Source: a virus. Taken from it: a stretch of 64,000 bases of DNA. Below are positions 1-64,000 of this stretch, piece by piece; position 1 is the first letter of the stretch, and each line of letters opens with the position of its first letter. Position numbers and translations under genes: made by a program. Location: positions 14,122 through 78,121 of IMG/VR virus record IMGVR_UViG_3300030406_003150; one strand, 5' to 3'. A model generated the notes under the pieces. That model saw only the letters and a program-made list of their open reading frames with translations. It ran no database searches and was not told the origin of the DNA.

Positions 1-3000
1 TAGAGACTGCTACATTTGCACTTCCGCTAGCAAACTCAATTATATTTTTGTTTACTGGAATAAGCGCAAGCTTATTCTCTTGGAGGGCAACTATATCTTC
101 GTTATAGTTACCTATATAATCAATCGCTCCAAACTTAGCATCTAAAGATGAAAAATTCGAAAGCGAAGGATTAAACGAAGAGAAAGATAGGTTTGAAACA
201 TCCTCTACATAAGCATCACTATACGTCAAACCATTTAGCCTGACTATTTCCTTAGACTTTTTAAATGGAACATGAGCTCTTCCCTGGCTCCAGATCCTTG
301 AGTTAAACCTATCAGAAAGGGTGTTGCTTTCTATAAACAGAGTTTGATATCCGTAAGAGTCATAGAAATCTCTAGCCTCCCAAGCAGAAAACGTGCTTGA
401 GGTTGCAGTTTCAAGATCAGTTTCTATATCGTTGTCAAGAACTTGAACTCCTCCTCCTGGGCTAGAGCCAGCATGCAGGGCAGTCTTACAGGCTACTGGC
501 CTCAGCCAAGAATCGCCATTCGTCACAGTAATAGAAGCCCCATGCTGATTGACGCTACCTGATTTTCTAGCCCCGCATCTGTCGCCATGGCCTATCTCGT
601 AGTACACCTTTTCAGAAGTAGTTTTCTTAGGGGTGTATATCTCAACAAGGGTTTCTTTGCCCCAGTGATTAATAGCGTTAGTTCCAATAGTAGTGTTCGA
701 TCCAGTAGTCAAATCAAAACCGCTTACATCTCCCCAGTCAAACCCAGTATATCTTACGGCAGTGCCACTACTGTTTGTTTCTCCACCGTTAATTCTTGAA
801 GCCTCAAGGACCAAAAAGCTGCCAGTGTATTTATCGTCAGCAGCGCTACCACTTTCCCTCACTATTTGAATTGGAGTGGTAGTATCGGTTGGGGATGTGC
901 CTTTGGAAAGAGTAACCACATCGACAACTTCAAACTCAATCTGAGAATTATCATTAGCCTCTGGGTACAAAGTTGACGAATTGTCGTCTGCTCTACGGCT
1001 GATAAGTCTTAGCCTGTCGCCTTTAGTAAATGAATAATTTCTAGATACGTTTTTCTCTTCCCTGTAGCTTTCCAAAGTGGTTAAAGAAACATACAGCCTT
1101 TTGTTCTGTACGTCTGTACGGTGTTTTGGAGTACTAGCGCCATCATCTAACTCCAAAGTAGCCACATAAGCTGGTCCAGTAGTATACTGAACGTAATCGT
1201 CTATACTGTCTGGGCCTGCATAAACGATCTGATATCTTTCTGCCCAGCTAGGGGGGTTGTGGTTAAAGGTTATCTTTACTGATGCTGGTCCAAAGTCCGA
1301 CAAACTAGAATTACTTCTTTCATTTACTGTCTTTACATAGCAAGACCCTAGCTCATTAACAAAACCAGATCTATTAAACTCATCATAGTAAACTATGCCA
1401 AAGCTGTGCGTGCTGCCTGATTTAAAAGTAGGTTTAGCTTGGATTGCGTTTGCAGAAGCAGATTGTGCGCTCACAAAAGTTGAACCTACGGTATAACCGA
1501 GAGTCCCCGTGTCGCTTTCAGCGCCAAGAATATCAGCCTCTTGCTCGTGGCTCATATTAAAAGACAAGGTATAAGAAGAAAACCCACTGCTTATAGCGTC
1601 TACACTAAATACAGCGCTAGATTTTTCTACCTGAATAAGCTTGGGGTTGATTCTAAATCCTGATACCCCAGTGGCTGGTGTAAGAGTTGTAGTATTGCCG
1701 AAATCAAAAGTAGCATTTACATTTCCGTCTAGATCCAAACCAGTCCAAGAAGAAAAATTTGGGCTGAGCGAGCTGTCAACACCGCTGTCCACAGTAAACT
1801 GCTCGTCGGTTATTGTATACAGATAATCAATGGTTTTGCCATTCATAAGTTCTTCAAGAGCAGCCCCTATATCTTCTATGTCTTGGTCTTGGGGAACTAT
1901 ATAGGTAATTGAAATGCCGTCTTGATCCGAAGAACTTTGATGAACGAGAGACACGCTATCGCTAGACTTCAACACTATCCCAGGGTCTACAATATTAAGA
2001 GATGGACTAGTATTATGATTAGCTATCATAGTTCCCTCTACTCTAAAGACGCCTCCACCTGTAGTTCCAGCGTCAACCACTATGTTTTTGCCAGGACCTC
2101 CCCAGTTGAAACTAAGTTTTATGATCGTGCCAGCGGGGACAATCGTGTCCTTGTCTGCCTGTGTTGATCCGCTTTCTAAACCGTCAAATGCAGTCCCTCC
2201 AAGAAGATTTATATCTATAGAAGGCGTGGTGGATGTTGACTGAGTTATAACACTTGTGGCCTGACCAGAGGCTATAAACTGCTCATCCTTGTCGGTAAGT
2301 GGAGAATACTGAACTGTAAGGGTTACGTCAGTAACCACATTGTCGAAACCCTCTTTGTAATTAGAGTACACGACTCTATTTCCAGCTATAGCCTGTCCCT
2401 TTGCGGTCAGAGGAACGTTGTCATATAATTTGTTTACCGTCTGAGTAGGGACAGTTTCCCCTAGAGTGTTGTTGTAAAATCTGTAGGTTTCTGTGGTCGG
2501 ACTGTAAACCGTAACTGAATTACCAGCTATGTGCCTAGTTACAGTTGTTGTTGGGTCAAACTGATCAACGACAAAGAATGATCCAGTATTTCCTATCCTA
2601 GCCAACAGCCTAACTTCTTTCAGGTCTGGAAGAGTAGGATCTAGTTGGATGTTTACTAAACATACGTTATCAATAAATGGGTTGGTTGCAAAACCACTTG
2701 TCTCCATGGTGTTCAAAAACAAAACCTTGGAAACAGCTATTTCAGAGTATGGAGAGATCGCAGATTCTTCGCCGTCTTGAAAGATGTTTTGAGTAGCAAA
2801 CTGAAAAGTGTCCTCGTTAAAGTTGTTCTGGAGAACGTTTGTATCTGATTCAAAAGAAACAAGAGGGAACTTATTATTTGCTGCTTTGATAGCAGATATG
2901 TGCTCTACAAAATTAGAACCTGTAAACTGATCATAATCGCCAGCTATAGCTCTATCTACGTTAATCTTTCTAGGACCATTCTGGTTGTCTGTTACGCTGC

Positions 3001-3460
3001 TAGATCCACCTCCGTCAGTAAAATAAAGAATGGTGTTTATACTACCGTCTAGGTTTATATTGACAACATCTGCCTTTATAAAACCGTTGGGATCAAAGTT
3101 TAAATTGCTGCTTTCAAGTATGGTCCTATAGGAGTTAGCCGCTAGGGTTCCGTTAGTAGTAGACTTTGTATTATACTGATATATCGTATCGCCAGTTCCA
3201 GAAGAGCTAACAGCAAAGTAGTATATAAAACCTCTTTGAGGGTCGGACACCTGACCAATAACCACCTTACTGTTAAAAATCTGTGAGTCAGAAACAGCAG
3301 TAGCGGCTGTCGTTCCCTTGACATTTTTGATTACACCCTCGGTACCATCTCCATCCTCAGATATGGAGACGTTGAGGGCGTCCGTCATGGCGCCCTCTTT
3401 CAACAAACGCTCATCCTCATCACTGACAAGGAAGCGTGGTATGATCTTATCAATAGGCAT
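1..3460 (-). CDS. Tail stabilisation/muzzle protein, copy A (3' end beyond window)
   Basis: Not in the ORF track. ATG at 3460 overlaps the upstream TAA and reads MPIDKIIPRFLVSDEDERLLKEGAMTDALNV. The same frame at the left edge reads FGAIDYIGNYNEDIVALQENKLALIPVNKNII. Both ends align with the 47940..53903 protein. Confidence 0.85.
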   Translation of the reverse strand, partial: MPIDKIIPRFLVSDEDERLLKEGAMTDALNVSISEDGDGTEGVIKNVKGTTAATAVSDSQIFNSKVVIGQVSDPQRGFIYYFAVSSSGTGDTIYQYNTKSTTNGTLAANSYRTILESSNLNFDPNGFIKADVVNINLDGSINTILYFTDGGGSSSVTDNQNGPRKINVDRAIAGDYDQFTGSNFVEHISAIKAANNKFPLVSFESDTNVLQNNFNEDTFQFATQNIFQDGEESAISPYSEIAVSKVLFLNTMETSGFATNPFIDNVCLVNIQLDPTLPDLKEVRLLARIGNTGSFFVVDQFDPTTTVTRHIAGNSVTVYSPTTETYRFYNNTLGETVPTQTVNKLYDNVPLTAKGQAIAGNRVVYSNYKEGFDNVVTDVTLTVQYSPLTDKDEQFIASGQATSVITQSTSTTPSIDINLLGGTAFDGLESGSTQADKDTIVPAGTIIKLSFNWGGPGKNIVVDAGTTGGGVFRVEGTMIANHNTSPSLNIVDPGIVLKSSDSVSLVHQSSSDQDGISITYIVPQDQDIEDIGAALEELMNGKTIDYLYTITDEQFTVDSGVDSSLSPNFSSWTGLDLDGNVNATFDFGNTTTLTPATGVSGFRINPKLIQVEKSSAVFSVDAISSGFSSYTLSFNMSHEQEADILGAESDTGTLGYTVGSTFVSAQSASANAIQAKPTFKSGSTHSFGIVYYDEFNRSGFVNELGSCYVKTVNERSNSSLSDFGPASVKITFNHNPPSWAERYQIVYAGPDSIDDYVQYTTGPAYVATLELDDGASTPKHRTDVQNKRLYVSLTTLESYREEKNVSRNYSFTKGDRLRLISRRADDNSSTLYPEANDNSQIEFEVVDVVTLSKGTSPTDTTTPIQIVRESGSAADDKYTGSFLVLEASRINGGETNSSGTAVRYTGFDWGDVSGFDLTTGSNTTIGTNAINHWGKETLVEIYTPKKTTSEKVYYEIGHGDRCGARKSGSVNQHGASITVTNGDSWLRPVACKTALHAGSSPGGGVQVLDNDIETDLETATSSTFSAWEARDFYDSYGYQTLFIESNTLSDRFNSRIWSQGRAHVPFKKSKEIVRLNGLTYSDAYVEDVSNLSFSSFNPSLSNFSSLDAKFGAIDYIGNYNEDIVALQENKLALIPVNKNIIEFASGSANVAVS

Positions 3461-4302
3461 TAGAACTTAGGTGCTTGCTTGTAGTTCTTCCTAATCGTCC
3501 TCAAGGCGTCCTCCTTAGTGAACGACTTAATTCTGGAGTTGGCTTTTCTCCTCTCGTTATAGTATTCCTGTCTAGCTCTCTGCTTCTCTCCCATAGGCAC
3601 AGAGGCTTTACGCTCAATAATCTTGTAGTACATATACGCCATAAGAGCCTCTTCTGCGTATACATTGACAGAAGGGTTTTTAGACCTGGCCTCATCAGCT
3701 ACATACTCTATAACTACCTCGGACACGTTAGAAGCTGTGTCTATCTCAATTCTGTTTTGGTCCAGATTCACCCTGAACTGACCGTTTCTGTGTCCCCCTC
3801 CGATCCCGTACAGAGCATTAGCCGCTCCATAAACATAGTTTCTAAAGATGAAAGAGTTAAATCCTTGGGAGAGACTATCAGAATTCGATGACGATCCAGA
3901 CGTAGCGGACTTAGAATCAATTCGATCGTTCACGCCGTCGCCGTCTGAGTCAGCCGCTGAAGCTGCATTGTCTACAGCCGTTCCAGTAGCATCAGCGTAA
4001 GACTGAGAGTAGTTTATATTTTTGTTTTCGCCCAATACATAGATGATGCCATCGGTACCCACAGAGCCTATCTTGCTCCAGTCTACATAATCATCAGGCA
4101 ACTCGACGGTATTGTTGGTAGAGTCAACCTTCAGCTTAAGTGACTTTATTTTTTTAGATACATCAAAACCAAGCTCACGAATACCTCTAAGCGCGTGAGT
4201 TCTAATCTGTGTGTCAGAAGCATTGCCAGCGTAGTCATCATCAGCAATAGTGATGATGAAGTCGTTGATGATTTGATTTAGTGGTACTGTATTTCTAGCC
4301 AT
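3460..4302 (-). CDS. Tail ring/tubular protein, copy A
   Basis: 280 aa; directly upstream of the muzzle gene; paralog of 53903..54730 (DDYA.NASDT.IR..ALRGIRE.GFD; VYAEEAL..Y.YYKI.ERK). Confidence 0.7.
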   Translation of the reverse strand: MARNTVPLNQIINDFIITIADDDYAGNASDTQIRTHALRGIRELGFDVSKKIKSLKLKVDSTNNTVELPDDYVDWSKIGSVGTDGIIYVLGENKNINYSQSYADATGTAVDNAASAADSDGDGVNDRIDSKSATSGSSSNSDSLSQGFNSFIFRNYVYGAANALYGIGGGHRNGQFRVNLDQNRIEIDTASNVSEVVIEYVADEARSKNPSVNVYAEEALMAYMYYKIIERKASVPMGEKQRARQEYYNERRKANSRIKSFTKEDALRTIRKNYKQAPKF

Positions 4303-5036
4303 TAGAATGTCTCTGCTTGTTTCCTACTAGTCACCTCTGAGTTAGCGTAGGCAACCACGTCTGCGTCTCTTAAGTTGATTCCAATCATCTTTGCTATCTC
4401 ATAGATAAGATCAGCTGTGTAATGCTCTGGCAGTTCAAAATCTATCAACGTGCCAGAAGGGGCAAACTTGGGTTGACTAGAATTCCTTTCTCCGTCAGAT
4501 GTATTTCTTCCTTGAGGGATTTTATAGTAACGAACTTCAATCTTAGTTACAGAAGTAGGGAATACATGAATGTCGTCTGACACAAGCGCTATAGGAAAAT
4601 CATCTGTAGGTGCGCTAAGGGTGCTGATTAGGATGCGCTCAATTTTTTCTTCGTCGTAACAAATCTCGATTGGCTTCTTAGTAGACTGGTCCAACAAGAT
4701 ACTTCCAGCCGTAGATATGCTTATGATTCTAGACAGGTCAGTAGGCTTGTCAAATACCCCACTGCTTTTAGATACCGTTTGCTTCTTTGAAAAAGAAGAT
4801 AAATCCTCTTGTATTCTTTTGATTCTTGACTTATCCCTGTTGGGGTTAAAGCCAGCGCGAGACAGCCTCTTGGCATCCTTTAGTTCGTCAAAGAGACCGT
4901 TGTATATATTAAGTTGAGCTATCTGAGCGAACTTATTAAACTCAAGATCAGATACAAAGCCCTGCTGATCTTTGTTGGCTAAATCCAACAAGGTATCGTG
5001 TACGATTTGTATACTAGCTCCGTTTGCTTGTGCCAT
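4302..5036 (-). CDS. Tail ring/adaptor protein, copy A
   Basis: 244 aa; LANKDQQGFVS..EFN.FAQ.AQ and FELPEHY motifs; paralog of 54730..55500. Confidence 0.7.
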   Translation of the reverse strand: MAQANGASIQIVHDTLLDLANKDQQGFVSDLEFNKFAQIAQLNIYNGLFDELKDAKRLSRAGFNPNRDKSRIKRIQEDLSSFSKKQTVSKSSGVFDKPTDLSRIISISTAGSILLDQSTKKPIEICYDEEKIERILISTLSAPTDDFPIALVSDDIHVFPTSVTKIEVRYYKIPQGRNTSDGERNSSQPKFAPSGTLIDFELPEHYTADLIYEIAKMIGINLRDADVVAYANSEVTSRKQAETF

Positions 5037-5040
5037 GCAA

Positions 5041-5048
5041 CAAATATA
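5041..5048 (-). promoter_or_regulatory. Bacteroidota -7 box TATATTTG, 4 nt before ATG 5036
   Basis: Matches the TAnnTTTG consensus. Confidence 0.7.
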
Positions 5049-5050
5049 CG

Positions 5051-5078
5051 AAAAAGAAAAAGCCCCCTTGCGGGGGCT
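5051..5078 (-). terminator. Intrinsic terminator
   Basis: AGCCCCC/GGGGGCT stem with U-tract on the minus strand. Confidence 0.75.
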
Positions 5079-5101
5079 CTTCTAGCACTGAGGCGCAGAT
5101 A

Positions 5102-5911
5102 TTAGGATAGCTGTCTTTCGATTTCAGCGACGACAGGAGCCGCCGCATCTGTCAAGCAGTATCTAACAAAAACATCAACTGGGTCTTGACCAGCAGGCAC
5201 CGATACGATGAGGCTGTTGGTATCAAACCACTTAACGGCATTGTCATCTGCCTTAATTAACTGATAGTTGATAGCCTGACGAACCATAGACTTCATAGAT
5301 ACCACTGGGTTGTCGAATGATTCAATAAACTGTTGAGGGGACTTCTTTGCTTTGATTAGCAAGTCGTGCTTTATTTCTGCTGCTGGTCTGTCTATATCCA
5401 TACCGTAAGCTAAAGCTACAGAGCATAGCTGGTCTATGTCTTTGCTTCTAAGCAAGCTAATCGCGTCGTTAATCAAGAACTCAGAATCAACATCGATCTC
5501 TGCTTTCTTCACTTTGTCAACAAGCTCAAACAGGGAACCTCCGTTCGCCTTATTATCTGGGTGTATGCGTAAATACTCTTTCAGGTTGGGTTGAGACTTA
5601 TTTACAAACAGCCTCCCCATGTTGAATATGATGGGGGTTTTTACAGATCTGTCTGATTGCTCGTCCCTCCATATAGAGTTTTCATTTTCGCAGTAACGAA
5701 TCTCTCTGACCTTACCGACCTCTTCGTCATAAATCGTAATGCCACTTTGCATCAGCATCATAACGGCTCCAGCGTTGTACGCTACGAACTCTTGTATTCC
5801 GCTATACTTTTGATTCTCATTGCGCTTAACAGGCTTTCTCTTAGCCTGTTGCTTGGCTGCTGGTGCAGCTTTTTTTGGTCGCCCTGGAGGGCGCTTGGTT
5901 GTTTGATTCAT
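5102..5911 (-). CDS. Conserved capsid-region protein, copy A
   Basis: 269 aa; basic PGRPKK N-terminus; VREIRYC.NE.SI..DEQ motif; paralog of 56981..57814. Confidence 0.65.
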   Translation of the reverse strand: MNQTTKRPPGRPKKAAPAAKQQAKRKPVKRNENQKYSGIQEFVAYNAGAVMMLMQSGITIYDEEVGKVREIRYCENENSIWRDEQSDRSVKTPIIFNMGRLFVNKSQPNLKEYLRIHPDNKANGGSLFELVDKVKKAEIDVDSEFLINDAISLLRSKDIDQLCSVALAYGMDIDRPAAEIKHDLLIKAKKSPQQFIESFDNPVVSMKSMVRQAINYQLIKADDNAVKWFDTNSLIVSVPAGQDPVDVFVRYCLTDAAAPVVAEIERQLS

Positions 5912-5946
5912 AATGATATTGAATTAAATGTTTTTACAAGAGTAGT

Positions 5947-5975
5947 AAAAGAGAGGAGAGCTATTCTCTCCTCTC
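5947..5975 (-). terminator. Intrinsic terminator
   Basis: GAGAGGAGA/TCTCCTCTC stem plus short U-run. Confidence 0.6.
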
Positions 5976-5990
5976 AGTTACCGATTTAGA

Positions 5991-6380
5991 TTAAGCAAAA
6001 ACTGGAGAGTTGGCGTTAGCACCAATAATATCCAAGTCAGTTGCTGATTGAAGTCCATCCTTTGTAAGCATTACAGAAGCAGCTTCGTTTGCAGCATTCA
6101 AAGTAAGAGTGTTTGAGCCTCTTCTGAAAATCACTGCGGCAGCGGCAGCATCTTCTGAGTTGCTGTTGAGGCTGGTAATGTCAACAAAGAAAATCAATCC
6201 CGCTGGGCCGATCAAGTCTACCGTGTATGTAGGTGCCGAATCTGCCCCTTGAGCATTGATCAAAACTGTTCTTGAGTCAACCTCAAAGTTTACAGTTTTT
6301 GCAGTTTCAGTTGCTACAATCTCAAGAGTCAAGGTAGCGCTTGCTGTTTCAGAAAGCAGGGGAAAAAGTTTATCCGCCAT
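5991..6380 (-). CDS. Putative capsid decoration protein (module A only)
   Basis: Probable start MADKLF at 6380; Ala/Thr-rich beta protein directly after the MCP. Confidence 0.45.
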   Translation of the reverse strand: MADKLFPLLSETASATLTLEIVATETAKTVNFEVDSRTVLINAQGADSAPTYTVDLIGPAGLIFFVDITSLNSNSEDAAAAAVIFRRGSNTLTLNAANEAASVMLTKDGLQSATDLDIIGANANSPVFA

Positions 6381-6403
6381 AATAATAAGTATTATGAACA
6401 TCA

Positions 6404-6429
6404 AGAGAAAGCCCCGAAGGGCCTTCTCT
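6404..6429 (-). terminator. Hairpin/terminator after MCP A (cUUCGg loop)
   Basis: AGAGAAAGCCCCGAAGGGCCTTCTCT inverted repeat. Confidence 0.55.
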
Positions 6430-6444
6430 GTCAGTTCAGGTTAA

Positions 6445-7866
6445 TTACTTCAATACAACGTGCTGGTTAGCAGCGCGAGTAACGAGGTTACACTCAGAAC
6501 GGTAGTTGAACTTAACAGTGTCCTTACCGTTTGTAACGTGACCAAGAACTCCACCGCCTTCTACCCAGTGCTCCATCTCTCTGCTGTAGTTTCCAGCAGA
6601 CTTGAAGTTCATCTCCAAAGAAGGAGACTTAATACCAGTAGAAGCGTCAGCTACTTGCGTCATAGGAATCATAGCACCCTTATGGATTTCGTTGAGTCCA
6701 CCCAAAGTAGGATCGTTCAACAACTTCCAATCGTGCTTGTGGAAAGTGTATCCACCGCGAGTGAACGACTTAAATCCGAGCTTTACAGCCAAGTCAGCGT
6801 CATTGTTGAATGCGCCGAACTGTCCAGCCAAACCAGCAGTCACCTGAGTAGCGATACCAGAAGCAAGCAAGTTATCGATATCCAAAGAAGTCTTTCTGTT
6901 CAGGTACATAGCGTACTCAGCAGGAGCTCCTTCTTTATCGAGCTGAATCAAGATATCGTCGATATCCTTCATGCTAGAGAATGTTCCGTGAGTTCCACCA
7001 GAGAGAGTAGAGATGATACCTCTTCTTTCTACAGCTTGGAAGTAACCCTCAGAACCTGGAATAGTTCCGCTTGCGTCTCCAGTAGCAGCTGTTTCAACAC
7101 CGCCGAGAGCGATATCAGCTGCCGATGCTTCAGCTGGAGGACGTGTGCCAACAGCGTCAAGCTGAGAGTACAACAACATCATCTCACGCTGATTCATGAA
7201 GCGCTTACGAGCATCCATCTCGTTCTTCAAGTACCACATGTACTGTCCGTTTACGTTCAGGTAGCCGATGTTTGTAGCCTGAGAACCATTCACCTCGTAA
7301 GTTTCCTTCGTGATGATGTAAGGATTCTTACGCTTTACCAAACCGTTCTGATAGAACGTAGTTGGCTGGTCAGTACCCTGAGCGTAGATGTTACCGATGA
7401 TTGCTGCGGTTCCACTCAATGAGGCGTCAAGCGCCTCGCCGTCAAGACGAACCACGTCAAGAGTATTAGTAGCCGTCTTAATAACAACTACTCTTTCTCC
7501 AGTAGCGAGCAACAACACGTCGTTCACACGGCAAGGCTCGCCAGTTACGGTCAACGTAGCGTTGGCAGCTGGAGAACCCACAGCGGCTGACGAGTTAGTG
7601 TAAGCAACAGTCTGGTGCAGACGACCCTCTTCGTAGTAATGTACTTCGTCAGCGGTGCCAGCGTTCTTTTTCGCTCCTGTCATTTCCAGGAAGCCAGTGA
7701 TGCCCTGATCACCGAAAGTTTCAACATACAGATCTCTTACGTCGGGCTTCGTAGGATCGATTAAATCTCCCAAAGAAGTATAGTTCTGTGGGCTGGTTTG
7801 AAAGCCTCCGCCTACAAGTCCTTCACTTGATGTGGCGTCGTCTCTATTAGTAATGGAATTAGCCAT
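6445..7866 (-). CDS. Major capsid protein, copy A
   Basis: 473 aa after the scaffold; motifs GDQGITGFL, Y.VNGSQATNIG, GSEGYF.A...RG, LGFKSFTRGGYTFHKHDWKLLNDPT as I recognise them in Bacteroidota podophage MCPs. Confidence 0.85.
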   Translation of the reverse strand: MANSITNRDDATSSEGLVGGGFQTSPQNYTSLGDLIDPTKPDVRDLYVETFGDQGITGFLEMTGAKKNAGTADEVHYYEEGRLHQTVAYTNSSAAVGSPAANATLTVTGEPCRVNDVLLLATGERVVVIKTATNTLDVVRLDGEALDASLSGTAAIIGNIYAQGTDQPTTFYQNGLVKRKNPYIITKETYEVNGSQATNIGYLNVNGQYMWYLKNEMDARKRFMNQREMMLLYSQLDAVGTRPPAEASAADIALGGVETAATGDASGTIPGSEGYFQAVERRGIISTLSGGTHGTFSSMKDIDDILIQLDKEGAPAEYAMYLNRKTSLDIDNLLASGIATQVTAGLAGQFGAFNNDADLAVKLGFKSFTRGGYTFHKHDWKLLNDPTLGGLNEIHKGAMIPMTQVADASTGIKSPSLEMNFKSAGNYSREMEHWVEGGGVLGHVTNGKDTVKFNYRSECNLVTRAANQHVVLK

Positions 7867-7888
7867 AATATTTTCTTTTTATAAAAAC

Positions 7889-8974
7889 TTATACAAATCC
7901 GAACCCTCCTTTATTCATCCCCATAGCCTCTCTTAATTGTTCGGTTAGGGGGTCGGGTCCGCTAGGTGCGCTTCCTTGACTTGGAGAAGTTGGGGTTGCG
8001 TTAGCCGCGTTCTGCACTACCGATCTCTGAGCGTCTGCCATGCCCTGTCTGTAAACAGACTGGATAATCTTATCGGCATTGTCGATCAAAGCTCTGTGCA
8101 TGTTGAGCGTATCGTAATCCCAGCTTCCGTCTTCTCTCACGTATGGATCGAAGAACTCGTCAAGGCGAGCATTTTTCTCAGCGAGTTGACCCTTGTATGC
8201 TTCGTCCATACCGAAGGTAAAGCTGTTACCATTTCCGAGATCGAACTCAATCCCTTCCATAGAGTCTAGCTCCTCCGCCATAGCAGAAATCCAAGGCTCA
8301 TCAATAAATGACTCCGACTCTACAGATTGTCGCTCTGGGGCTTGATATTGCAATCGCATTTCTTCAATACCCTTACGCGCATTCTCTGCGTCGATTTTCA
8401 TTTGCAGTTGCGAAAGCTTCACCTCGTCTTCTGAGTTAAGATCTGGATCGAGCTTGTACTTGCTAGAGACCAACAATCCGATTTCTTCTTGAGAAAGGTT
8501 GGGGTAGTCAGATGCCATTTGCACCTGAATAGCAGTCATGTCATCCATTTCGGATGGGTTCATAGACTGATAAACAAACCAATCTCTTGGATCACGACCA
8601 GTGTTATCAACAAAGTCTGCGATCGCAGCGATTCTTTCGTCGAGCTCTCTTTGCTCCTGCTGTTGCACCGTCAAGTCATCGAGGGAATTGATGTCTCTTC
8701 CAAGCCTTTCGCTAAGGAAGTTAAAGACTGCTCCTTCGACTTCTTCTGGTGAATATTGTGGTTCTCCCACAGTCTCGTTTGACTGAGGTTCCGAACTAAT
8801 TTCTTGTTGAACCTCTGGGGTAGCTTCTACCGTAGGCTGTTGATCTACGGCTGGGGCTTGAGGTTGTTGTACTGAAGCTATCTCTTCTTCGCTTACAAAG
8901 CTGAAGGACGGCTCTGGTGTGGAGACGGGAGCCTCTTGCTCTACCGCCTCTACGGGTTGTGTATTTTCTTCCAT
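7889..8974 (-). CDS. Capsid scaffolding protein, copy A
   Basis: 361 aa; acidic E/Q/P-rich N-terminus; directly upstream of the MCP; paralog of 60753..61889. Confidence 0.7.
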   Translation of the reverse strand: MEENTQPVEAVEQEAPVSTPEPSFSFVSEEEIASVQQPQAPAVDQQPTVEATPEVQQEISSEPQSNETVGEPQYSPEEVEGAVFNFLSERLGRDINSLDDLTVQQQEQRELDERIAAIADFVDNTGRDPRDWFVYQSMNPSEMDDMTAIQVQMASDYPNLSQEEIGLLVSSKYKLDPDLNSEDEVKLSQLQMKIDAENARKGIEEMRLQYQAPERQSVESESFIDEPWISAMAEELDSMEGIEFDLGNGNSFTFGMDEAYKGQLAEKNARLDEFFDPYVREDGSWDYDTLNMHRALIDNADKIIQSVYRQGMADAQRSVVQNAANATPTSPSQGSAPSGPDPLTEQLREAMGMNKGGFGFV

Positions 8975-8992
8975 TAAATTAAAATTCGTTTA

Positions 8993-9256
8993 TTACAGGT
9001 ATGCAATAACGCCGCAGCCTGAAGTATTGGGAACCACAATACTGGTGTATTCACCTTCGATGGTTTGCCCTTCCTTTAGGATAAGATCGTAGCCATTGCT
9101 GTCTTGAGTTCCGTTAACAAAAAAGTTAGGGGAAGTAACGCCATAAGTTCCAGCACCTGTAACCGTAAACTTAAAAAAGCTTTTGCCTGTAGGGGCGTTT
9201 AGAGTAGTATTTTGAGCGCCTACGTGAACCTCACTCACACTGTTTGGATATGCCAT
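8993..9256 (-). CDS. Small putative virion protein
   Basis: Probable start MAYPNS at 9256, after TATATTTG at 9271-9278. Confidence 0.5.
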   Translation of the reverse strand: MAYPNSVSEVHVGAQNTTLNAPTGKSFFKFTVTGAGTYGVTSPNFFVNGTQDSNGYDLILKEGQTIEGEYTSIVVPNTSGCGVIAYL

Positions 9257-9281
9257 TGCTATTCTTTTTGCAAATATATAA

Positions 9282-9718: not shown

Positions 9719-9736
9719 AGTTTTATCTTTTAAAAG

Positions 9737-54730: not shown

Positions 54731-55500
54731 TATTCAGATGCTTCTTCTTGTGATGCAAACACAGATACCTGCGTTTCTCTCAACCTAATTCCAATCAACT
54801 TAGCCAACTCCATTACCACCTCTGTCAAATAGTGAGGCGGCAACATGAAGTTTCTAGAGCCTTGAGCATTAAATACTTCTAAAGATTCGCCGTTGTAACT
54901 TGCTGTCCTGAAGTCGTAGTAAGGTGCGTCAGGCAAGACGTTTCCTTCGCTATCAAACGAAGTGGGTTTAGCGTAGTAATTTAAGTAAACAACGGGTATT
55001 GTAGGTGGAAATATTTCTATGTCTACAGCAGAAACTAAGGCTACTGGAAAGCTCTCTGTAGGGTAAGAAAGATTGCTACCTACTATTCTGTCAATCTTCT
55101 CAGGATCGTACACTAGCTCACAGTTAACTAAGTCCTGGTTAGCGTTTGTAGCACCTTGAGGATCAAACAACGAACCTGCGTATATAGATACTATCTTAGA
55201 TAGATCAGAGGGTTTCTCTAGCAGTCCGTTGTTGTATTCTAAATCCAACAGGGCAGCCTTCCTTCTCAAGTAAAAGGCTAAGTCCTCTTGCTTTTGTTTT
55301 CTTACAGACTTGTCTCTACCAGGCTCAAAATTCTGTCGGCTCAAGCGTTTAGCCGTCACAAGCTCAGCAAACATTTCATTGTAGATATTCATCTGAGCCA
55401 GCGCTGCAAATGAATTGAATACTTGAGGCGTAATGAAACCTTTTTGCTCTTTGTTAGCGAGGTCCCTTAGAGCTGTATATACTTGTAATACGCTTACCAT
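54730..55500 (-). CDS. Tail ring/adaptor protein, copy B
   Basis: Paralog of 4302..5036; TATATTTG 4 nt upstream (55505-55512). Confidence 0.7.
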   Translation of the reverse strand: MVSVLQVYTALRDLANKEQKGFITPQVFNSFAALAQMNIYNEMFAELVTAKRLSRQNFEPGRDKSVRKQKQEDLAFYLRRKAALLDLEYNNGLLEKPSDLSKIVSIYAGSLFDPQGATNANQDLVNCELVYDPEKIDRIVGSNLSYPTESFPVALVSAVDIEIFPPTIPVVYLNYYAKPTSFDSEGNVLPDAPYYDFRTASYNGESLEVFNAQGSRNFMLPPHYLTEVVMELAKLIGIRLRETQVSVFASQEEASE

Positions 55501-55533
55501 AATACAAATATACTAAAAACAAATAGGGTGTAA

Positions 55534-56934
55534 TTAGTAGCTAATTCTTGCAGAGGTAGCCACCCTCGTAGTAGGTTTAGTTGATGTGCCTGTAAGCTTG
55601 CTTCTCTTGCCGCCATACAAAGAGTATAGCTGAGCGGCTAAGTTTGCAGCTTCACTAGCTCCGATGTCAGAATTTATAACTCCAAACCTATAAAGCTGCA
55701 CCCGCTGTGTGCTTTGAGCACCTCCAACCTCTCCTATAGAGCCCAAAACTAAATCACCGTCCGTCCTAAAGTCAGAGCTATTAGTAAGGTTAGGATCTAG
55801 CTCAAGGGTTTTTGCGGGCAGCTTACCAACGATGTCGCCGTTTCTATTGTGAAGAAACATATTACCAAGTATGTCTCTACGAATAATAAAGACATGATTT
55901 GCATCATACCCTTTAGCGTCTGGGTCGGGGTCGGGGAATGCAAAAGACTTAGTTCCATCCTCAGTGGATGTGGTGTCTACAAAAGCTGGATAGCCAGTCA
56001 GAATAGTAGAGCTAGCAAGAGCAGCAGAATCTGTCTTACTGTGTCTTGCAGCAAATATGTTTTTGCTTTGTCGCATAGTGTTGCTTCCATCAAACTTGCC
56101 GTTATCAGAAGGGACGGCCCCAAAACCAAAGCCACCGCCACCAACATCACCATACAAAGCTCCAATGCCATACGTAGCGCTGCCAGCAAGACCGTTTAAA
56201 TTTACAGCTACATAGATGGTGTAATCTTGTTTTATCTCAAAAACAGTGTCCAGATTAAACGCATTAGAAGTTCCAATATTAACAGCTGGCTTAATTAATG
56301 TTTCGTCACCACCGCTCGCAAGTTGAGTCCTAGTGCTGCCCGTTTGCTGAGAAAGATTGTGATCTACACCTGCTGTGCCAGAGTTTTTCCAAGAAGTATT
56401 AGCTGTGTTGTGAGTTTGAACCAAGTTTTCATGATTGTAATCAATCACAGGAAGCTCGTTAAAGAAAATCTCAGCTATTGTATTCTGAAACTCTCTTTCT
56501 TGCCTTCCAACAGAAGGCCGCTTGTTTATCGTCTTTACAGGGGCAGAAGAAATCGCAGGCAAGACATCATTAACGTCTTCAACAACAGCTTCTCTAAATG
56601 TAGATTCACTAGACACTACATCAAACTTCATGATGTTTTTAGGAGTGTTCCTAGACATAAAGTTTATGATGCTTTCTATTAGGCTTGCTTCTTCACCCTG
56701 ATTGCAAGAGACAGTTATAGTTGTTTTGAGCAATGACTCTCCCTCTTCTAAGGCAGCCTCATCAAAACCGTTGCAGTCCTTGAAGGTAAACCTCACCCTT
56801 CCGAGTTCCGAAGTAATGAACGTCAGATTTTCGGACGGTATTGCTATGGTGCTTATACCAACACCAGTATCTGAAAATGAAGCGCTAGTTGGAGACTCTA
56901 TCTCTCTACGGAAAAAGAAGAACTTTCTGTCCAT
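55534..56934 (-). CDS. Putative head/tail fibre with LamG-like C-terminal domain (module B only)
   Basis: N-terminal domain resembles 57896..58708; YTIYVAV...HVFIIRRD..GNMFLH...LGSIG lectin-like pattern. Confidence 0.5.
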   Translation of the reverse strand: MDRKFFFFRREIESPTSASFSDTGVGISTIAIPSENLTFITSELGRVRFTFKDCNGFDEAALEEGESLLKTTITVSCNQGEEASLIESIINFMSRNTPKNIMKFDVVSSESTFREAVVEDVNDVLPAISSAPVKTINKRPSVGRQEREFQNTIAEIFFNELPVIDYNHENLVQTHNTANTSWKNSGTAGVDHNLSQQTGSTRTQLASGGDETLIKPAVNIGTSNAFNLDTVFEIKQDYTIYVAVNLNGLAGSATYGIGALYGDVGGGGFGFGAVPSDNGKFDGSNTMRQSKNIFAARHSKTDSAALASSTILTGYPAFVDTTSTEDGTKSFAFPDPDPDAKGYDANHVFIIRRDILGNMFLHNRNGDIVGKLPAKTLELDPNLTNSSDFRTDGDLVLGSIGEVGGAQSTQRVQLYRFGVINSDIGASEAANLAAQLYSLYGGKRSKLTGTSTKPTTRVATSARISY

Positions 56935-56952
56935 GAAACAAATATACGAAAC

Positions 56953-56978
56953 AAAAAAGCCACCCGAAGGTGGCCTTT
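56953..56978 (-). terminator. Intrinsic terminator (cUUCGg)
   Basis: GCCACC/GGTGGC stem with U6. Confidence 0.75.
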
Positions 56979-56980
56979 CT

Positions 56981-57814
56981 TTATCCTAGCTTGTCTAGCC
57001 TTTCCTCTAAGGCGGAAAGCACTGATGATCCTTTTTCTGTTAGGCAGAATCTAACCATGACGTCTACAGCATCCTGACCCACAGGGACCGATACGATTAG
57101 GCTGTTGGAGTCAAACCAATAAACAGCCTCTTGACTTACTCTTATGATCTGATAATCTTTAGCCTGAATCACGACAGATCGCGCCTGTACTTGAGGTGAA
57201 TCAAATGATTCGATAAACTCTTGCGGCTTGTTCTTAGCGATTCTAAGCAAGTTAAATCGAATCTCTGCTACTGGTTGGTTGATGTTTACTTGGAAGTAAA
57301 GAGCCACAGGCAAAAGCTCTTGTATGTCTGTATCTCTAACCAAGGCTATAGCATCTGTCAACAAAAACTCTCTCTTGAGTTCTGCTTCAGCTTCTAGTTT
57401 TTTGTTTACCTCTGCAAAAACATTGCCTCCGTTGGCTTTGTTCAAAGGATGCATCTCGATAAACTTCCTGAGATTGGGCTTGTCTTTGGGGATAAAAAGC
57501 TTTTTGTTTCTAAATACTACAGATTCTCTGCGAGCGTTTTCAGATTGTTCATCCCTAAAAATAGATGGCTCATTAGGGCAGTAACGTATCTCTCTAACGC
57601 TGTCGTTTTCTTCGTCGTATACAGTCACGCCTTTCTGAGGGAGCATAAAAGCGATACCACCTCCTTTTAAGATCTCGTATTCTTTGTTTTGGTTTACTTG
57701 CTCTTTTCTCTTGATAGAGCGCTTCTTCTTTGCAGGGGCGGCAGGTGCTACTGCCTGTGCAGGTGCCTGGGCTTTTTTAGGTCTCCCAGGAGACTTCTTA
57801 GTTTGTGTAGTCAT
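56981..57814 (-). CDS. Conserved capsid-region protein, copy B
   Basis: Paralog of 5102..5911. Confidence 0.65.
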   Translation of the reverse strand: MTTQTKKSPGRPKKAQAPAQAVAPAAPAKKKRSIKRKEQVNQNKEYEILKGGGIAFMLPQKGVTVYDEENDSVREIRYCPNEPSIFRDEQSENARRESVVFRNKKLFIPKDKPNLRKFIEMHPLNKANGGNVFAEVNKKLEAEAELKREFLLTDAIALVRDTDIQELLPVALYFQVNINQPVAEIRFNLLRIAKNKPQEFIESFDSPQVQARSVVIQAKDYQIIRVSQEAVYWFDSNSLIVSVPVGQDAVDVMVRFCLTEKGSSVLSALEERLDKLG

Positions 57815-57850
57815 ATTAAATTGAATTAGTAAGGCAAATATAACTAAAAT

Positions 57851-57875
57851 AAAAAAGGCCCCCGAAGGAGCCTTT
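57851..57875 (-). terminator. Intrinsic terminator (cUUCGg)
   Basis: AAAAAAGGCCCCCGAAGGAGCCTTT. Confidence 0.7.
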
Positions 57876-57895
57876 CTTTAAAAGAAAAAAGTTTA

Positions 57896-58708
57896 TTACT
57901 CAGTGCCGTAGAGCTCAATCAAAAGTTTACCAGCAGTGTAAGTGCCATTGGTTCCCTCTCCATCAACAAGATATAAGTACTGATTGGCAGTCGGCAAGTT
58001 AGCCAAAGAAATAGGCCCATTCTGTGTGCCAGAAAAATCTACGTCTACAGCTTGCAAAGTGACTCCATTAGTTCCAGTTGAAATAGCAGCATCTTCTGCC
58101 AGGGTAGCTTCGTCTACAGAGTGCAAGTCAATATCTGCATCGCCCCCTGCGGGAGTTTCGAGACACGTCATGCTACCCGCAAACAAAGTCCCAGAAACAG
58201 CAGTAGTATACTGACCGATGTGGCTGTTTGCTGTTGCTGCCTTACCAATTACATCACCAGAAGCTGAAGAATCCAAACCAGTAAGATCAATAAATATACT
58301 GGTCTTAATAACATTACCCATTTTTTCAATCCAGCTATGATACACAGTGCCAGTACCAGTAGTGATACCTGTTCCAGCCGTCAAGCCGTTGTTAGTAGCA
58401 CCAGAGTCATCTACGGAGACAGCACTAATATTGTTGTCAATAAAGACGCTATTCACTGAATCGGCAATAACAACAAACTGATCTTTACTGAAAGCAATAG
58501 CTTCAGAGATAGATTGCATTACGGCCTTTTCTGTTCCAGCAGTAACCGTAAGATCAACTTTAGTGTTAGAACTAGACGTTCCGAGAGCATGTTCGAAAGT
58601 CATAAGAATGCTGGTGTTATCCAGCTGATCGATAGCCAAAAGTCTATCTACAGGGAAGGTCATTGCGTTATCTGACCCCCCATCAAAGTACAAAAATTTT
58701 GCAGCCAT
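57896..58708 (-). CDS. Putative capsid auxiliary/head fibre protein (module B only)
   Basis: 270 aa; Thr/Gly/Ala-rich; downstream of the MCP. Confidence 0.5.
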   Translation of the reverse strand: MAAKFLYFDGGSDNAMTFPVDRLLAIDQLDNTSILMTFEHALGTSSSNTKVDLTVTAGTEKAVMQSISEAIAFSKDQFVVIADSVNSVFIDNNISAVSVDDSGATNNGLTAGTGITTGTGTVYHSWIEKMGNVIKTSIFIDLTGLDSSASGDVIGKAATANSHIGQYTTAVSGTLFAGSMTCLETPAGGDADIDLHSVDEATLAEDAAISTGTNGVTLQAVDVDFSGTQNGPISLANLPTANQYLYLVDGEGTNGTYTAGKLLIELYGTE

Positions 58709-58746
58709 TTTTTTTAGTTTATGTAGTAAAACAAATCATACATGGT

Positions 58747-58775
58747 AAAAAGCAGGGAGCCGAAGCCCCCTGTTT
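58747..58775 (-). terminator. Intrinsic terminator (cUUCGg)
   Basis: AAAAAGCAGGGAGCCGAAGCCCCCTGTTT. Confidence 0.65.
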
Positions 58776-58776
58776 C

Positions 58777-59256
58777 TTAGAAGTGTCTATAAACAACGTG
58801 AACTTCAAGTTCGTTGTCTCCTGTGATTGCTTGGTTTCCAGTGTCAATTCTACCAAAAATTTTTCTAGCAACACCAGTAAAAGCACCAGCGGTGTTTGTT
58901 ACTCCAGGAGTGTTAGTGCCAGCAGTACCAGCGATAGTAAATTTGAACACGTTACCAGCAGCGACAGTTGCATTGTCACTTTGATCAAGGATTCCGTTTG
59001 AAACATCTGCAACGATATCAACGCCAGTATGGTCAGAGTTTGTGCCCATTCTAAAGCCAATATCAGCAGCGCCACCAATAGTAATACCACCTACAACACG
59101 AACAAAAACACCATCAACAATGCTATTAGCTGGCTGATCAAACTCAAAGTCAGTATCAGTATTTTGCTTACAAGCATTCTTAATCGTAATTGCGTGAGAG
59201 GATGTCATACAGCCTGGACGCGCATGAGAGAATATAGCGTCTGTATTTTCAGCCAT
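58777..59256 (-). CDS. Putative capsid decoration protein (module B only)
   Basis: 159 aa, beta-rich; directly after MCP B. Confidence 0.45.
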   Translation of the reverse strand: MAENTDAIFSHARPGCMTSSHAITIKNACKQNTDTDFEFDQPANSIVDGVFVRVVGGITIGGAADIGFRMGTNSDHTGVDIVADVSNGILDQSDNATVAAGNVFKFTIAGTAGTNTPGVTNTAGAFTGVARKIFGRIDTGNQAITGDNELEVHVVYRHF

Positions 59257-59318
59257 AATAGTTGTTTGTTAGGAAGTTAGGGGAAGGGCCGAAGCCCCTC
59301 CCTTTCACTTCAGGTTAA

Positions 59319-60746
59319 TTATCCCTTGATGAGTACGTGCTGGTTAGCAGCGCGAACACACAAAGCAATTTCAGATCTGTAGTGGAACGTAGCAACGTCA
59401 GAACCAGCATCTCCATTGTTTGTGTGGCCCAATACACCGCCACCAGTTACCCAGTGCTCCATCTCACGAGAGTAGCCGTTTGCTTCCTTGTAGTACATCG
59501 CCAAAGCAGGAGACTTGTATCCGCTGCGTGGGTCAGCCACTTGAGTCAAAGGAACCATAACGCCCTGGAAAGCTGTACCTGCACCCAACAAAGTTGGATC
59601 GTTCAACAGCTTCCAATCGTGCTTGTGGAAAGTGTATCCACCGCGTGTAAACGACTTAAAGCCCAACTTGACAGCCATGTCTGCATCGTTGTTAAACGCA
59701 CCGAACTGTCCAGACAAGCCAGCAGTCACACCAGTTGCAATACCAGTAGCAAGCATGTCATCGATAGCGAGGTCTTGCTTTCTGTTCAAGTACATAGCGT
59801 ACTCAGGCGGAGCGCCTTGCTTATCAAGCTCGATGATGATATCGTCAAACTCAGCAAAAGAATCGAGAGGGTTAGAGTTGGCGTTAGTCACCTCAATGCC
59901 TCTGGAATCGAGAGCTGTGAAGTAGCCTTCAGATCCAGCGATTGTCTTACCCAAGTCGTTGTCTCCATCATCACTTGTTGTAGCTGCGTTCTTCTCACCG
60001 AAAAGCAACATCATCTCACGACGATCTTCAAAGCGCTTGCGAGCTTCTTGCTCACCGTACATAAACCAGCGGAACTCTCCACCTCCGATATCAACCCAAC
60101 CGATATTGGTTGCTTGAGATCCGTTTACTTGGTAACGATCCTTAACGATCATGAATGGATTGCTACGCTTTACGACGTCTGAGTCAGTAAAGTGAGTGGG
60201 CTGATCAGTGCCTTGAGCGTACAGGTTGCCAAGGTGAATCATTGTGACTCCAGATCCGTCTTCGCCAGCAGAACCATTAGCACCATCAAGACGCTCCATT
60301 TTGAGAACGGGATCAGTAGCTGTTGATGCTTCATTGACCAAGTATCTTGTTCCAGTAGCGGCGTTCATCAAAACGTCAGACTGCTGAATCAATCCTGCTA
60401 CGTGAGCAACACCGTCGCCAGAAGCGGAAGTGTCAATCGTGTAAGTAGCAACACCAGGTGCGTTTCCATCAGAACCAGCAGCTGATGCTGAAATTGTACC
60501 AGTGTAAACTCTGTGACGACGACCAGCTTCCCACCAATCAATTTGATCAGAGGTGCCTCCGCTTACGACAGCTCCAGTGAGCTGCAAGAATCCCGTGATA
60601 CCTTGATCCCCGTAGGACTCGGTAAGTTCAGGAATAACAAAATCTTTTGTTGTCTTCAAAAGATTATCTATAGTAGTGTATCTCTCAGGGGTCAGCCTTA
60701 AGTCTGGTGACGCCTGGTCTACACTAGCTCCAGTAATAGTAGCCAT
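59319..60746 (-). CDS. Major capsid protein, copy B
   Basis: 475 aa with the same signature motifs as copy A. Confidence 0.85.
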   Translation of the reverse strand: MATITGASVDQASPDLRLTPERYTTIDNLLKTTKDFVIPELTESYGDQGITGFLQLTGAVVSGGTSDQIDWWEAGRRHRVYTGTISASAAGSDGNAPGVATYTIDTSASGDGVAHVAGLIQQSDVLMNAATGTRYLVNEASTATDPVLKMERLDGANGSAGEDGSGVTMIHLGNLYAQGTDQPTHFTDSDVVKRSNPFMIVKDRYQVNGSQATNIGWVDIGGGEFRWFMYGEQEARKRFEDRREMMLLFGEKNAATTSDDGDNDLGKTIAGSEGYFTALDSRGIEVTNANSNPLDSFAEFDDIIIELDKQGAPPEYAMYLNRKQDLAIDDMLATGIATGVTAGLSGQFGAFNNDADMAVKLGFKSFTRGGYTFHKHDWKLLNDPTLLGAGTAFQGVMVPLTQVADPRSGYKSPALAMYYKEANGYSREMEHWVTGGGVLGHTNNGDAGSDVATFHYRSEIALCVRAANQHVLIKG

Positions 60747-60752
60747 AATTTT

Positions 60753-61889
60753 TTAGATTTTAAAAGTTAGCTTGTTGGACTGACCTCCCATAATATTTTT
60801 TAGTTGGTCGGCCAACGGGTTGGTTTGTTGGTTTTGATTCCCTTGTTGCGGGGTTTCAGTAGAGACATTGGCAGCTGTGTCTACAAGTGTTTTTTGTCCG
60901 TCACCCAATCCTCTAGTGTAAGCAGACTTAACAATTCTGTCAATGTTATCAATGACAGCCATGTGAGACGACAGCAAGTCGTAGTCCCAAGTACCGTCCT
61001 CACGAACGTAGGGATCAAAAAACTCGTCGAGACGAGCATTGCGATTCTTTAATTGACTTTTGTACTGATCGTCAAGACCGAATTCAAAAGTCTTCTCGTC
61101 ACCAAGGTCAAACTCTAGACCCGTTAACGCATCAACTTCCTTGGACATTTCAGATATCCAGTTGTCGTCAATTATAGATTCTGGTTCAGATGCTGACTGT
61201 TCTTTTGGGGCAGGAGCAGAGTAGCTACCTCTGATATCTTCAATGCCCTTTCTAGCTTTGTCACCATCCATTTTCAACTGAAGCTTGCCAAGCGTAACCT
61301 CCTCTTCTGTATACATATCGGGGTCAAGCTTGTACTTGCTGTTGACTAAAAGATTGAGTTCATCATACGAAAGGTTTGGATACTCATTCGCCATTTGAAT
61401 GCGAATAGCTGTCATATCATCCATACCCTCTGGATTCAATGACTGATATCTAAACCAATCTTCTGGTGCGCGGCCCGTTTCCTCTACGAACTTTGCGATG
61501 GCCTCGATCCTCTCGTCTAAAGCTTTTGCTTCAGTCTGTTGAGCAACAGAGAGGTCATCAAGAGAAGCTACGTTTCTTCCAAGCTTATCGCTCAAGAAAG
61601 AAAAGACAGCAGACTCGATATCCTCTTCTGAATACTCAGGTTCTGTATATTGTTCAGTCTCAACAGTTTCTGCTTGAGGCTGTACGAATTCTTCTACTAC
61701 GGGAGCCGATTCCTGCACGGGTGGCCCCTCGGTAATTGGTTGTTCTACGGGCTGTTCTACGACAGCTTCTTGTTGTTCTACGGGTGCTTCAGTTGTAGTT
61801 TCTGAAGCTGAGTTCATAGATGCAGCAAGGTCCTCAGGATTACTGAAGACCTTCATTCCTGCAATCTCTTCGATTGGAGTTTGTTCCAT
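60753..61889 (-). CDS. Capsid scaffolding protein, copy B
   Basis: LDERI.AIA.FV..TGR.P.DWF.YQS.NP shared with copy A. Confidence 0.7.
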   Translation of the reverse strand: MEQTPIEEIAGMKVFSNPEDLAASMNSASETTTEAPVEQQEAVVEQPVEQPITEGPPVQESAPVVEEFVQPQAETVETEQYTEPEYSEEDIESAVFSFLSDKLGRNVASLDDLSVAQQTEAKALDERIEAIAKFVEETGRAPEDWFRYQSLNPEGMDDMTAIRIQMANEYPNLSYDELNLLVNSKYKLDPDMYTEEEVTLGKLQLKMDGDKARKGIEDIRGSYSAPAPKEQSASEPESIIDDNWISEMSKEVDALTGLEFDLGDEKTFEFGLDDQYKSQLKNRNARLDEFFDPYVREDGTWDYDLLSSHMAVIDNIDRIVKSAYTRGLGDGQKTLVDTAANVSTETPQQGNQNQQTNPLADQLKNIMGGQSNKLTFKI

Positions 61890-61909
61890 TTTATTTAATT
61901 AAGTGTGTA

Positions 61910-62410
61910 TTAGTATTCAAAGCCGAACACAAGGTCCACGCTGTCTGCGCCCGAAAAATTTGGCTCGGTCGAAACGCTGTCGAGTATCCCCGCAACATAG
62001 ATTGCGCCTCCAGACTCAATACTGCTTAAAGGCACAGCCAAAGGGAGGGGTGATGATTCCGTCACGTCTGCATAGGTGTCACCAAACTTGATGTTCAAAT
62101 TGTCAAGCGCAGCGTTTGAAACCGCTGTGCTGCTAATGTGGACGCCGCCTATATACTGATTCGCTCTAAAATTTGCATCACTTATATTAGCGGTAGCGTT
62201 CTGCGTACCCAAATCATTAGTGTTTTTTTGAAAAAAGTAGAGCTGAACCGCGTCGCCGTTAAGTTGACCTTCCGTGTCAACGGCATATGCAGATATCAGT
62301 TTTGCGCCACGCGCAGGAAGCTTCAACTTAGTAGGGTTAAAAAGCACGTCATTAAGGGAGTAAGTCCCCGCTGCAATACTTGGTGTTACAGTTACTGTCT
62401 TAAATGCCAT
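61910..62410 (-). CDS. Putative virion protein
   Basis: 166 aa, beta-rich. Confidence 0.5.
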   Translation of the reverse strand: MAFKTVTVTPSIAAGTYSLNDVLFNPTKLKLPARGAKLISAYAVDTEGQLNGDAVQLYFFQKNTNDLGTQNATANISDANFRANQYIGGVHISSTAVSNAALDNLNIKFGDTYADVTESSPLPLAVPLSSIESGGAIYVAGILDSVSTEPNFSGADSVDLVFGFEY

Positions 62411-63678: not shown

Positions 63679-63999
63679 TTATATCTTATCTCTTTGTGCC
63701 ATGAGCCTTTTGAGCCTCGCAGCTACAGCAGGGGGAAAGCCTTTCTTTTTTCTTTTGGCTTTTGTCCCTCTGTGCTTTTTGTATATCTCGCTAATCTGTG
63801 CCATAAGCCTCTTTCTTTTGCCCACGTCAGCGCTGCCACGAGTATACTTTGGGTTGAACTTCATCCCCTTTTTTGCCGATGGAGCAAGACTAGAAAGAAA
63901 GAATCTAGTTCCACCCCCTGGTAGATTGTCTATCTCAAAGTTTCGTGTTTCATTAAATCCCTTTAGATCTAAAGCGTCTCGGCCAGCATCTTTATTTAA
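63679..63999 (-). CDS. Basic-tailed protein, copy B (5' end beyond window)
   Basis: Frame is open to the window edge: LNKDAGRDALDLKGFNETRNFEIDNLPGGGTRFFLSSLAPSAKKGMKFNPKY... Confidence 0.65.
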   Translation of the reverse strand, partial: LNKDAGRDALDLKGFNETRNFEIDNLPGGGTRFFLSSLAPSAKKGMKFNPKYTRGSADVGKRKRLMAQISEIYKKHRGTKAKRKKKGFPPAVAARLKRLMAQRDKI

Positions 64000-64000
64000 A

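Follow-up and report, generated by a model that had tools for sequence, protein, structure and literature searches.

An IMG/VR contig with two diverged head-tail modules is very probably an assembly chimera of two related phages

We analyzed a 64,000-nt window of the IMG/VR virus record IMGVR_UViG_3300030406_003150, in which two diverged head-tail modules, each with its own major capsid protein (MCP), stand at either side of a backbone with one portal gene and one terminase large subunit (TerL) gene. The window comprises bases 14122–78121, i.e., the right-hand 64 kb, of a single 78,121-bp contig; a further 14,121 nt lie to its left. From the letters alone, an initial annotation had proposed that one such genome could encode two kinds of particle, or mosaic virions, and had named as a serious alternative an assembly chimera or a recombinant of two related phages, with about one unit genome between the module copies. 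The evidence favors this alternative: the record is very probably an assembly chimera of a phage Y, the source of the left-hand module (module A), and a phage X, the source of the backbone and of the right-hand module (module B), rather than a single virus with particles of two kinds. The idea of one genome with two modules and two particle types is contradicted on three counts: the two parts vary independently in abundance, with a module A-to-backbone depth ratio that shifts about six-fold between runs; the segment at their junction is shared, and occurs elsewhere with another portal and terminase; and X-type genomes, i.e., backbone and module B without module A, are found in independent contigs.

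Abundance was evaluated over window positions 4001–24000 with the Logan contigs of four metagenome runs (X1, X3, X4, and X5), with depth values taken from exact-match contigs of at least 800 nt. Of the words sampled from window 9001–19000, 84–93% occur in three runs from a marine study of 2014. X4 and X5 yielded only relatives of either part, at 90–99% identity and in short pieces, and were left out of the depth argument. A single genome would be expected to show a 1:1 depth in every sample. Instead, module A was found in X1 at depths of 26.7, 23.1, and 24.3 against 46.1, 44.1, 48, and 55.6 for the portal/terminase backbone, while in X3 module A was at 30.8, 26.6, and 26.4 and the backbone at 7.33, 8.23, and 9.39, i.e., the A-to-backbone ratio inverted from ~0.5 to ~3.4. 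When all sequence in X3 at least 90% like the portal was counted, its summed depth was 9.3–9.4 in two of the bins lying wholly within the portal (14673–15339 and 16007–16673) and 20.9 in the bin between those two, still under module A (26–31). Since this portal-like total stays below the module-A depth, most module-A molecules in X3 are without this portal: module A and the portal/terminase cannot be one molecule.

The junction between the two parts behaves differently from both flanks. Over window 10842–13589, each run gave one contig version, at a depth of 61.8 in X1 and 40.1/34.5 in X3, which is about the sum of the flanks; a single version at summed depth means that this segment is present in both phages. 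An independent 15.3-kb IMG/VR contig (G011), found by an exact 30-mer from the segment, has window 10278–13667 at 98.2% identity, joined there to a portal and a terminase just 74% identical to those of the window, and ends 12 nt beyond the left edge of the segment. The nearest relatives of the G011 backbone are L190 (80%) and G005 (76%), whose MCP comes nearest to that of module A, and in L190 a 90.5% copy of the segment is linked to a scaffold gene of the A type and to a portal with 71% identity to that of the window. On the right, homology to segment-bearing contigs ends at 13667 and homology to X-like contigs begins at 13975–14155; the portal-region pieces of all four runs start at 14144–14326 (among the pieces listed), and no listed Logan piece from these runs bridges 13589–14144.

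Segment S, as we call it, is a typical exchangeable fiber cassette. As in classical phage mosaicism, a fiber C-terminal part and a gene for an RCC1-like protein are 98% identical on backbones that are 74% identical, and, as in other tail-fiber cassette exchanges, the N-terminus is lineage-specific and is followed by the break, at a collagen-like repeat; nothing about it departs from such exchanges. The presence of a 98%-identical cassette in two divergent, co-occurring phages suggests a recent exchange and possibly a common host, and the family names of the segment’s proteins would predict a role in receptor binding. At the left edge of the cassette, a stretch of ~343 nt (9935–10276) is absent from many relatives (L195, L196, and L201), and abundant contigs of X1, X4, and X5 join 9928/9934 to 10277/10278, skipping it. 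Its variable presence constitutes an indel polymorphism bordering the shared cassette.

Without module A, the remainder of the record has the look of a normal, recurring single-module genome, that of phage X. Three independent IMG/VR contigs, G001 (52.7 kb), G002 (42.8 kb), and G003 (54.1 kb), follow the backbone, the early genes, and module B in collinear order at 80–96% nucleotide identity, and module A is absent from all three. Their common order follows the window from ~13975–14155 through the portal, terminase, and tRNAs, on through the early arm and the cargo genes, to module B and its small basic genes. For the late backbone, nucleotide identity was 95% with G002 (13975–24512), 90–96% with G003, and 86–89% with G001; the early arm is collinear with G001 (80–88%) and G003 (72–95%), both running on into module B, and positions 46403/46926–57877 are 92.5% identical to G002 and G003. 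For G001–G003 alike, similarity ends in the 5′ part of the 585-aa fiber gene, beside its repeat array. In addition, module B is 98.5% identical at the nucleotide level to a metagenome contig, L208, over 53643–61912, MCP included. Within this lineage, the ring-like, 466-aa, and scaffold-like proteins of G002/G003 (L119, L121) are 94–100% identical to those of module B, with an MCP identity of just 67%, a comparison that points to a capsid gene replaced between otherwise near-identical (93–100%) structural modules, i.e., to MCP mosaicism in the X lineage.

The capsid proteins place the two modules far apart. A FastTree tree of 160 MCPs, a check suggested by the initial annotation, is split by its midpoint root into two deepest clades of 50 and 110 rows (support 97), and MCP A and MCP B lie in different ones. 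MCP A is nearest to L042 (81%) and L001 (77%), and MCP B to L081/L082 (85–86%), each nesting among contigs that were matched once each in the capsid searches; modules A and B are accordingly derived from separate, old lineages within a single large marine family. Independent genomes carrying both MCPs, which the annotation had also proposed to look for, were absent among the relatives searched: no relative with two MCPs was found in the isolates and IMG/VR relatives checked, and the five longest relatives (64.7–66.7 kb, rated 100% complete) have one MCP each. Relatives of 52.7–54.1 kb are rated 86–87% complete, so that a genome of ~61 kb is expected. At 78.1 kb, the record exceeds both this expectation and the complete relatives, yet it is open at both ends, cutting the 106-aa gene on the right and, on the left, a gene with a signal-peptide-like start that begins 3 nt past the stop of a 142-aa gene.

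The layout of the whole contig can be accounted for by a single wrong passage through an assembly graph. Contig bases 75–24055 are homologous to 53534–77997, i.e., ~24 kb at either contig end; the record thus amounts to ~1.45 units of a ~54-kb genome whose overlapping ends differ from each other, with zero Ns and no terminal repeat. In the path that we infer, phage Y would have given the left ~24 kb of the record with module A, and phage X ~50 kb, i.e., the fiber N-terminus, portal, terminase, tRNAs, early genes, cargo genes, and module B. A near-identical ~3.4-kb tail-fiber cassette, bounded by the collagen-like repeat array, is present in both and would act as a repeat node in the graph. The assembler would have entered this node from the Y side and left it on the X side, the crossing most likely lying inside segment S, and would then have gone once round the ~54-kb genome of phage X, halting ~0.2 kb before re-entering the cassette. 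Judged by homology with G002, ~195 nt separate the contig’s right end from the point where the counterpart of segment S would begin. Each phage would then have a portal, a terminase, and a single head-tail module of its own.

Chimeric contigs and shared unitigs are known to arise where phages have repeats or mosaic modules in common (PMC10563150). The present case resembles the “phage bubble” problem of Phables (PMC10563150) in having two variant paths and a shared node at summed depth, with flanks that are independent between samples, and in that one contig end lies near the shared node (as judged by homology with a relative) while G011 ends at the node’s edge. It differs in that the parents are far apart (49% MCP identity), whereas the usual cases are variants above 95% average nucleotide identity, and in an outcome that resembles a genome with two different modules and not a collapsed strain mixture.

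Several points weigh against a chimera or limit the evidence for it. The segment depth of 61.8 in X1 is somewhat under the simple sum of 67–83. Depths were derived from assembled contigs and not from raw read pairs, some of which may span from A-specific to X-specific sequence, and the comparison covers module A, the segment, and the backbone. A metagenome scan with the 182-aa protein gave L190, L201, and L208 but nothing identical to phage Y (best 82%), and the backbone of phage Y itself is probably G011-like, as judged from that 15-kb contig ending at the shared segment. For module A, the relatives with their own portal and TerL are of its lineage only: G005 (MCP 81%) and L190. The contig ends have no exact overlap of 12 nt or more with internal sequence, the shared segment included; the last 121 nt of the contig match neither this segment nor L208, and neither the exact 30-mers taken at the right end nor those of the A-specific insert occurred in viral contigs. 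Among the findings that the initial annotation had named as decisive against a two-module genome, a depth difference between A and the backbone and separate copies of backbone plus B were thus both observed, while an identical separate genome for module A was not found.

These points leave little room for a real genome of more than 78 kb with two diverged head-tail modules, one of them from a distant relative, whose virions could be of two types or mosaic. In its favor, neither module is broken, promoter-like and terminator-like words are retained in both, and the contig depths are compatible with a minor both-module population below ~8× in X3. However, the A-to-backbone ratio inverts between runs, and such a genome would call for three populations where two suffice; moreover, a second MCP was seen in none of the relatives, X-type genomes occur without A, and the contig, already well over the 55–67 kb of its relatives, still cuts genes at both ends. 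We accordingly regard a two-module genome as highly unlikely, and give equally little credence to its weaker form, in which a minor population would carry both modules on one molecule of more than 78 kb, the second having been gained through the shared fiber cassette, with two particle kinds as a possible result.

A real but unpackaged molecule, i.e., a recombinant hetero-concatemer formed in co-infection via the fiber cassette, or tandem related prophages or episomes, seems unlikely too, if a shade less so: the near-identical 3.4-kb cassette could support homologous recombination and both phages co-occur in the same samples, but no integrase or host DNA is seen among the annotated genes, and such intermediates would be rare against the 25–55× depth of each parent. 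The assembler could not distinguish a molecule of this kind from a graph walk, and nothing in the data calls for it. An in-genome duplication or a diverged terminal redundancy has the same order and strand and the position at both contig ends to speak for it, yet is close to inconceivable: MCP A is 81% identical to that of L042 and MCP B 85–86% to those of L081/L082, against 49% between A and B, and terminal repeats are identical by mechanism, while these copies are at most 66–80% identical at the nucleotide level. Duplication and diverged terminal repeats were rejected on the tree and these identities. The chimera of phages Y and X is thus preferred, and with it a metagenomic misassembly with, most likely, no new biological arrangement; the underlying biology would be ordinary mosaicism, i.e., the sharing of a fiber cassette and the capsid replacement in the X lineage.

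The record is instructive in that its parents are distant and every gene is intact. Although rated 100% complete by CheckV, free of Ns, and with no broken genes, it most likely joins two viruses, and taken at face value it would imply a phage equipped with two sets of capsid and tail genes. Because its length is ~1.27 times that expected and it has few k-mers in common between the copies, the record probably stays below the thresholds of the CheckV warnings for excess length and repeated k-mers, so that standard checks of this kind would probably not flag it. A mosaic cassette common to phages with ~50% identical capsid proteins suffices to make such a contig, and depth comparison across samples exposes it.

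Much of what the initial annotation had described in the modules themselves was borne out. A BLASTP comparison of minus-strand open reading frames (ORFs) of copy A against copy B recovered nine collinear pairs in the same order, all with open frames in both copies. Identities were 30–32% for the muzzle-like proteins, 58% for the second and 40% for the first ring-like proteins, 47% for the 269/277-aa pair, 49% for the MCPs, 52% for the scaffold-like proteins, 88% for the 70/68-aa pair, and 78% for the 74/65-aa pair; in the 182/106-aa pair, the C-terminal 68 aa are ~92–93% identical and the N-termini differ between copies. Nucleotide repeats at offsets of 52,886–53,974 nt agree with a spacing of about one unit genome, the likeness of the MCP genes indeed peaks near the C-termini (86% nucleotide identity, 6703–6880 vs 59589–59766), and PHROGs matches identified one portal and one TerL in view. 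The claim that the copies are no terminal repeat also stands: they are 66–80% identical in patches, with no end overlap, and the longest exact word common to both is shorter than 41 nt. Tetranucleotide profiles of the two modules are similar (r = 0.94), as expected of related phages, and are uninformative as to a separation of Y and X parts. The ring and muzzle names derive from crAss001-type tails, whose gene order and sizes these genes may resemble; PHROGs gives just “virion structural protein” for them, and the names serve here as labels only. No solved PDB chain matched MCP A or the 280-aa ring-like protein at E ≤ 0.01 (phmmer).

The regulatory words noted earlier are likewise present in both copies: in each copy, TATATTTG stands 4 nt ahead of the first-ring ATG and occurs again just past the 70/68-aa gene, and TAATTAACCTGAA with a GC-rich TTCG hairpin is found 3′ of both MCP stops. 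Throughout the window, TATATTTG occurs nine times (5041, 9271, 17103, 21909, 23506, 55505, 56939, 57835, and 63244), always on the minus strand, which is that of the late genes, and just upstream of a gene start at the four sites read. It fits TAnnTTTG, the Bacteroidota −7 promoter element, and as such would agree with a Flavobacteriia host. TATATTTG is a family-wide promoter word, which explains its retention in both copies, and is no sign of co-regulation inside one genome.

The two parent phages are probably marine podophages of Bacteroidota. Among isolates, phages of Flavobacterium, Cellulophaga, and Maribacter come closest, at ~30–33% MCP identity, with one MCP per record. Marine and freshwater podophages of Flavobacteriia, including Flavobacterium phage vB_FspP_elemo (~60 kb), Cellulophaga phages, Maribacter phage Panino (77 kb), and hundreds of IMG/VR contigs, have the same MCP (phrog_13704), portal (phrog_6547), and TerL (phrog_6681) families, and are alike in late-gene order and in having one MCP per genome; the present phages differ from the isolates in MCP sequence, and their close relatives are all uncultivated. 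A megablast of window 10000–30000 against phage isolates matched the tRNA genes and nothing else.

Table 1 Features of the 64,000-nt window (window coordinates)
Feature	Position	Strand	Notes
Phage Y-specific part	1–9934	-	Module A; with 14,121 nt further left (336-, 806-, 3026-, and 142-aa genes)
Module A genes			Muzzle-like (extends left of window), two ring-like, 269-aa, 137-aa, small basic genes, C-terminal part of 182-aa gene
MCP A	6445–7866	-	phrog_13704 (PHROGs)
Scaffold-like, module A	7889–8974	-	
Copy-A-specific stretch	9935–10276	-	N-terminal part of 182-aa gene; ~343 nt, at left edge of shared segment
Shared segment S (tail-fiber cassette)	10277–13667	-	66-, 97-, and 85-aa genes, RCC1-like gene, fiber C-terminal part
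RCC1-like protein, 452 aa	11056–12414	-	Pfam RCC1
Collagen-like tail fiber, 585 aa	12414–14171	-	Pfam Collagen, PHROGs tail fiber; C-terminal ~418 aa inside S
Collagen-like (Gly-X-Y) repeat array	13669–14106	-	Within 585-aa fiber gene; 9-nt period; repeat family D1
Phage X late backbone	14144–24378	-	Fiber-gene N-terminus, 150-aa gene, portal, TerL, two tRNAs, small genes
Portal	14627–17074	-	phrog_6547 (PHROGs, 1e-202)
Terminase large subunit	17119–19266	-	phrog_6681 (PHROGs, 6e-211)
Phage X early/replication arm	24292–37554	+	Pfam matches; many small genes
GIY-YIG domain, 349-aa ORF	30024–31073	+	Pfam
PDDEXK-like	33049–33834	+	Pfam
Primase-helicase	34542–36359	+	Pfam
Phage X distal late genes and module B	37551–64000	-	
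Distal late genes outside module B			97-aa, 525-aa, holin-like 144-aa, 1555-aa, 479-, 319-, and 333-aa genes
Module B genes			Muzzle-like 1987-aa, two ring-like, 466-, 277-, 270-, and 159-aa, scaffold-like, small basic genes, 106-aa (cut by contig end)
MCP B	59319–60746	-	phrog_13704 (PHROGs)

Outside the paired genes, the regions downstream of the two muzzle-like genes (contig bases 492–9572 and window 39854–44521) are not equivalent. Their cargo-like genes encode proteins of 336, 806, and 3026 aa in copy A and of 333, 319, 479, and 1555 aa in copy B, and clear nucleotide similarity (74%) was seen for the holin-like 142/144-aa genes alone. In the late backbone, tRNA-Arg(TCT) and tRNA-Met(CAT) lie on the minus strand directly upstream of the terminase gene (19261–19335 and 19674–19746). 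This stretch displayed a very high depth in all runs (310–4917) because many organisms have tRNA-like words in common, and several run contigs join 19739 to 19266, omitting the DNA between both tRNAs. These two tRNAs alone reached the gathering score in an Rfam scan of the whole window; in the early arm, a sub-threshold Hammerhead_1 match was noted at 26014–26061 on the plus strand (23.6 bits vs a gathering score of 34, E = 0.013 in a 2.7-kb search). Also in the early arm, the stretch of the GIY-YIG ORF is without nucleotide match in G001 and G003, i.e., it falls in a gap of their alignments, and this ORF may be a mobile homing-endonuclease gene.

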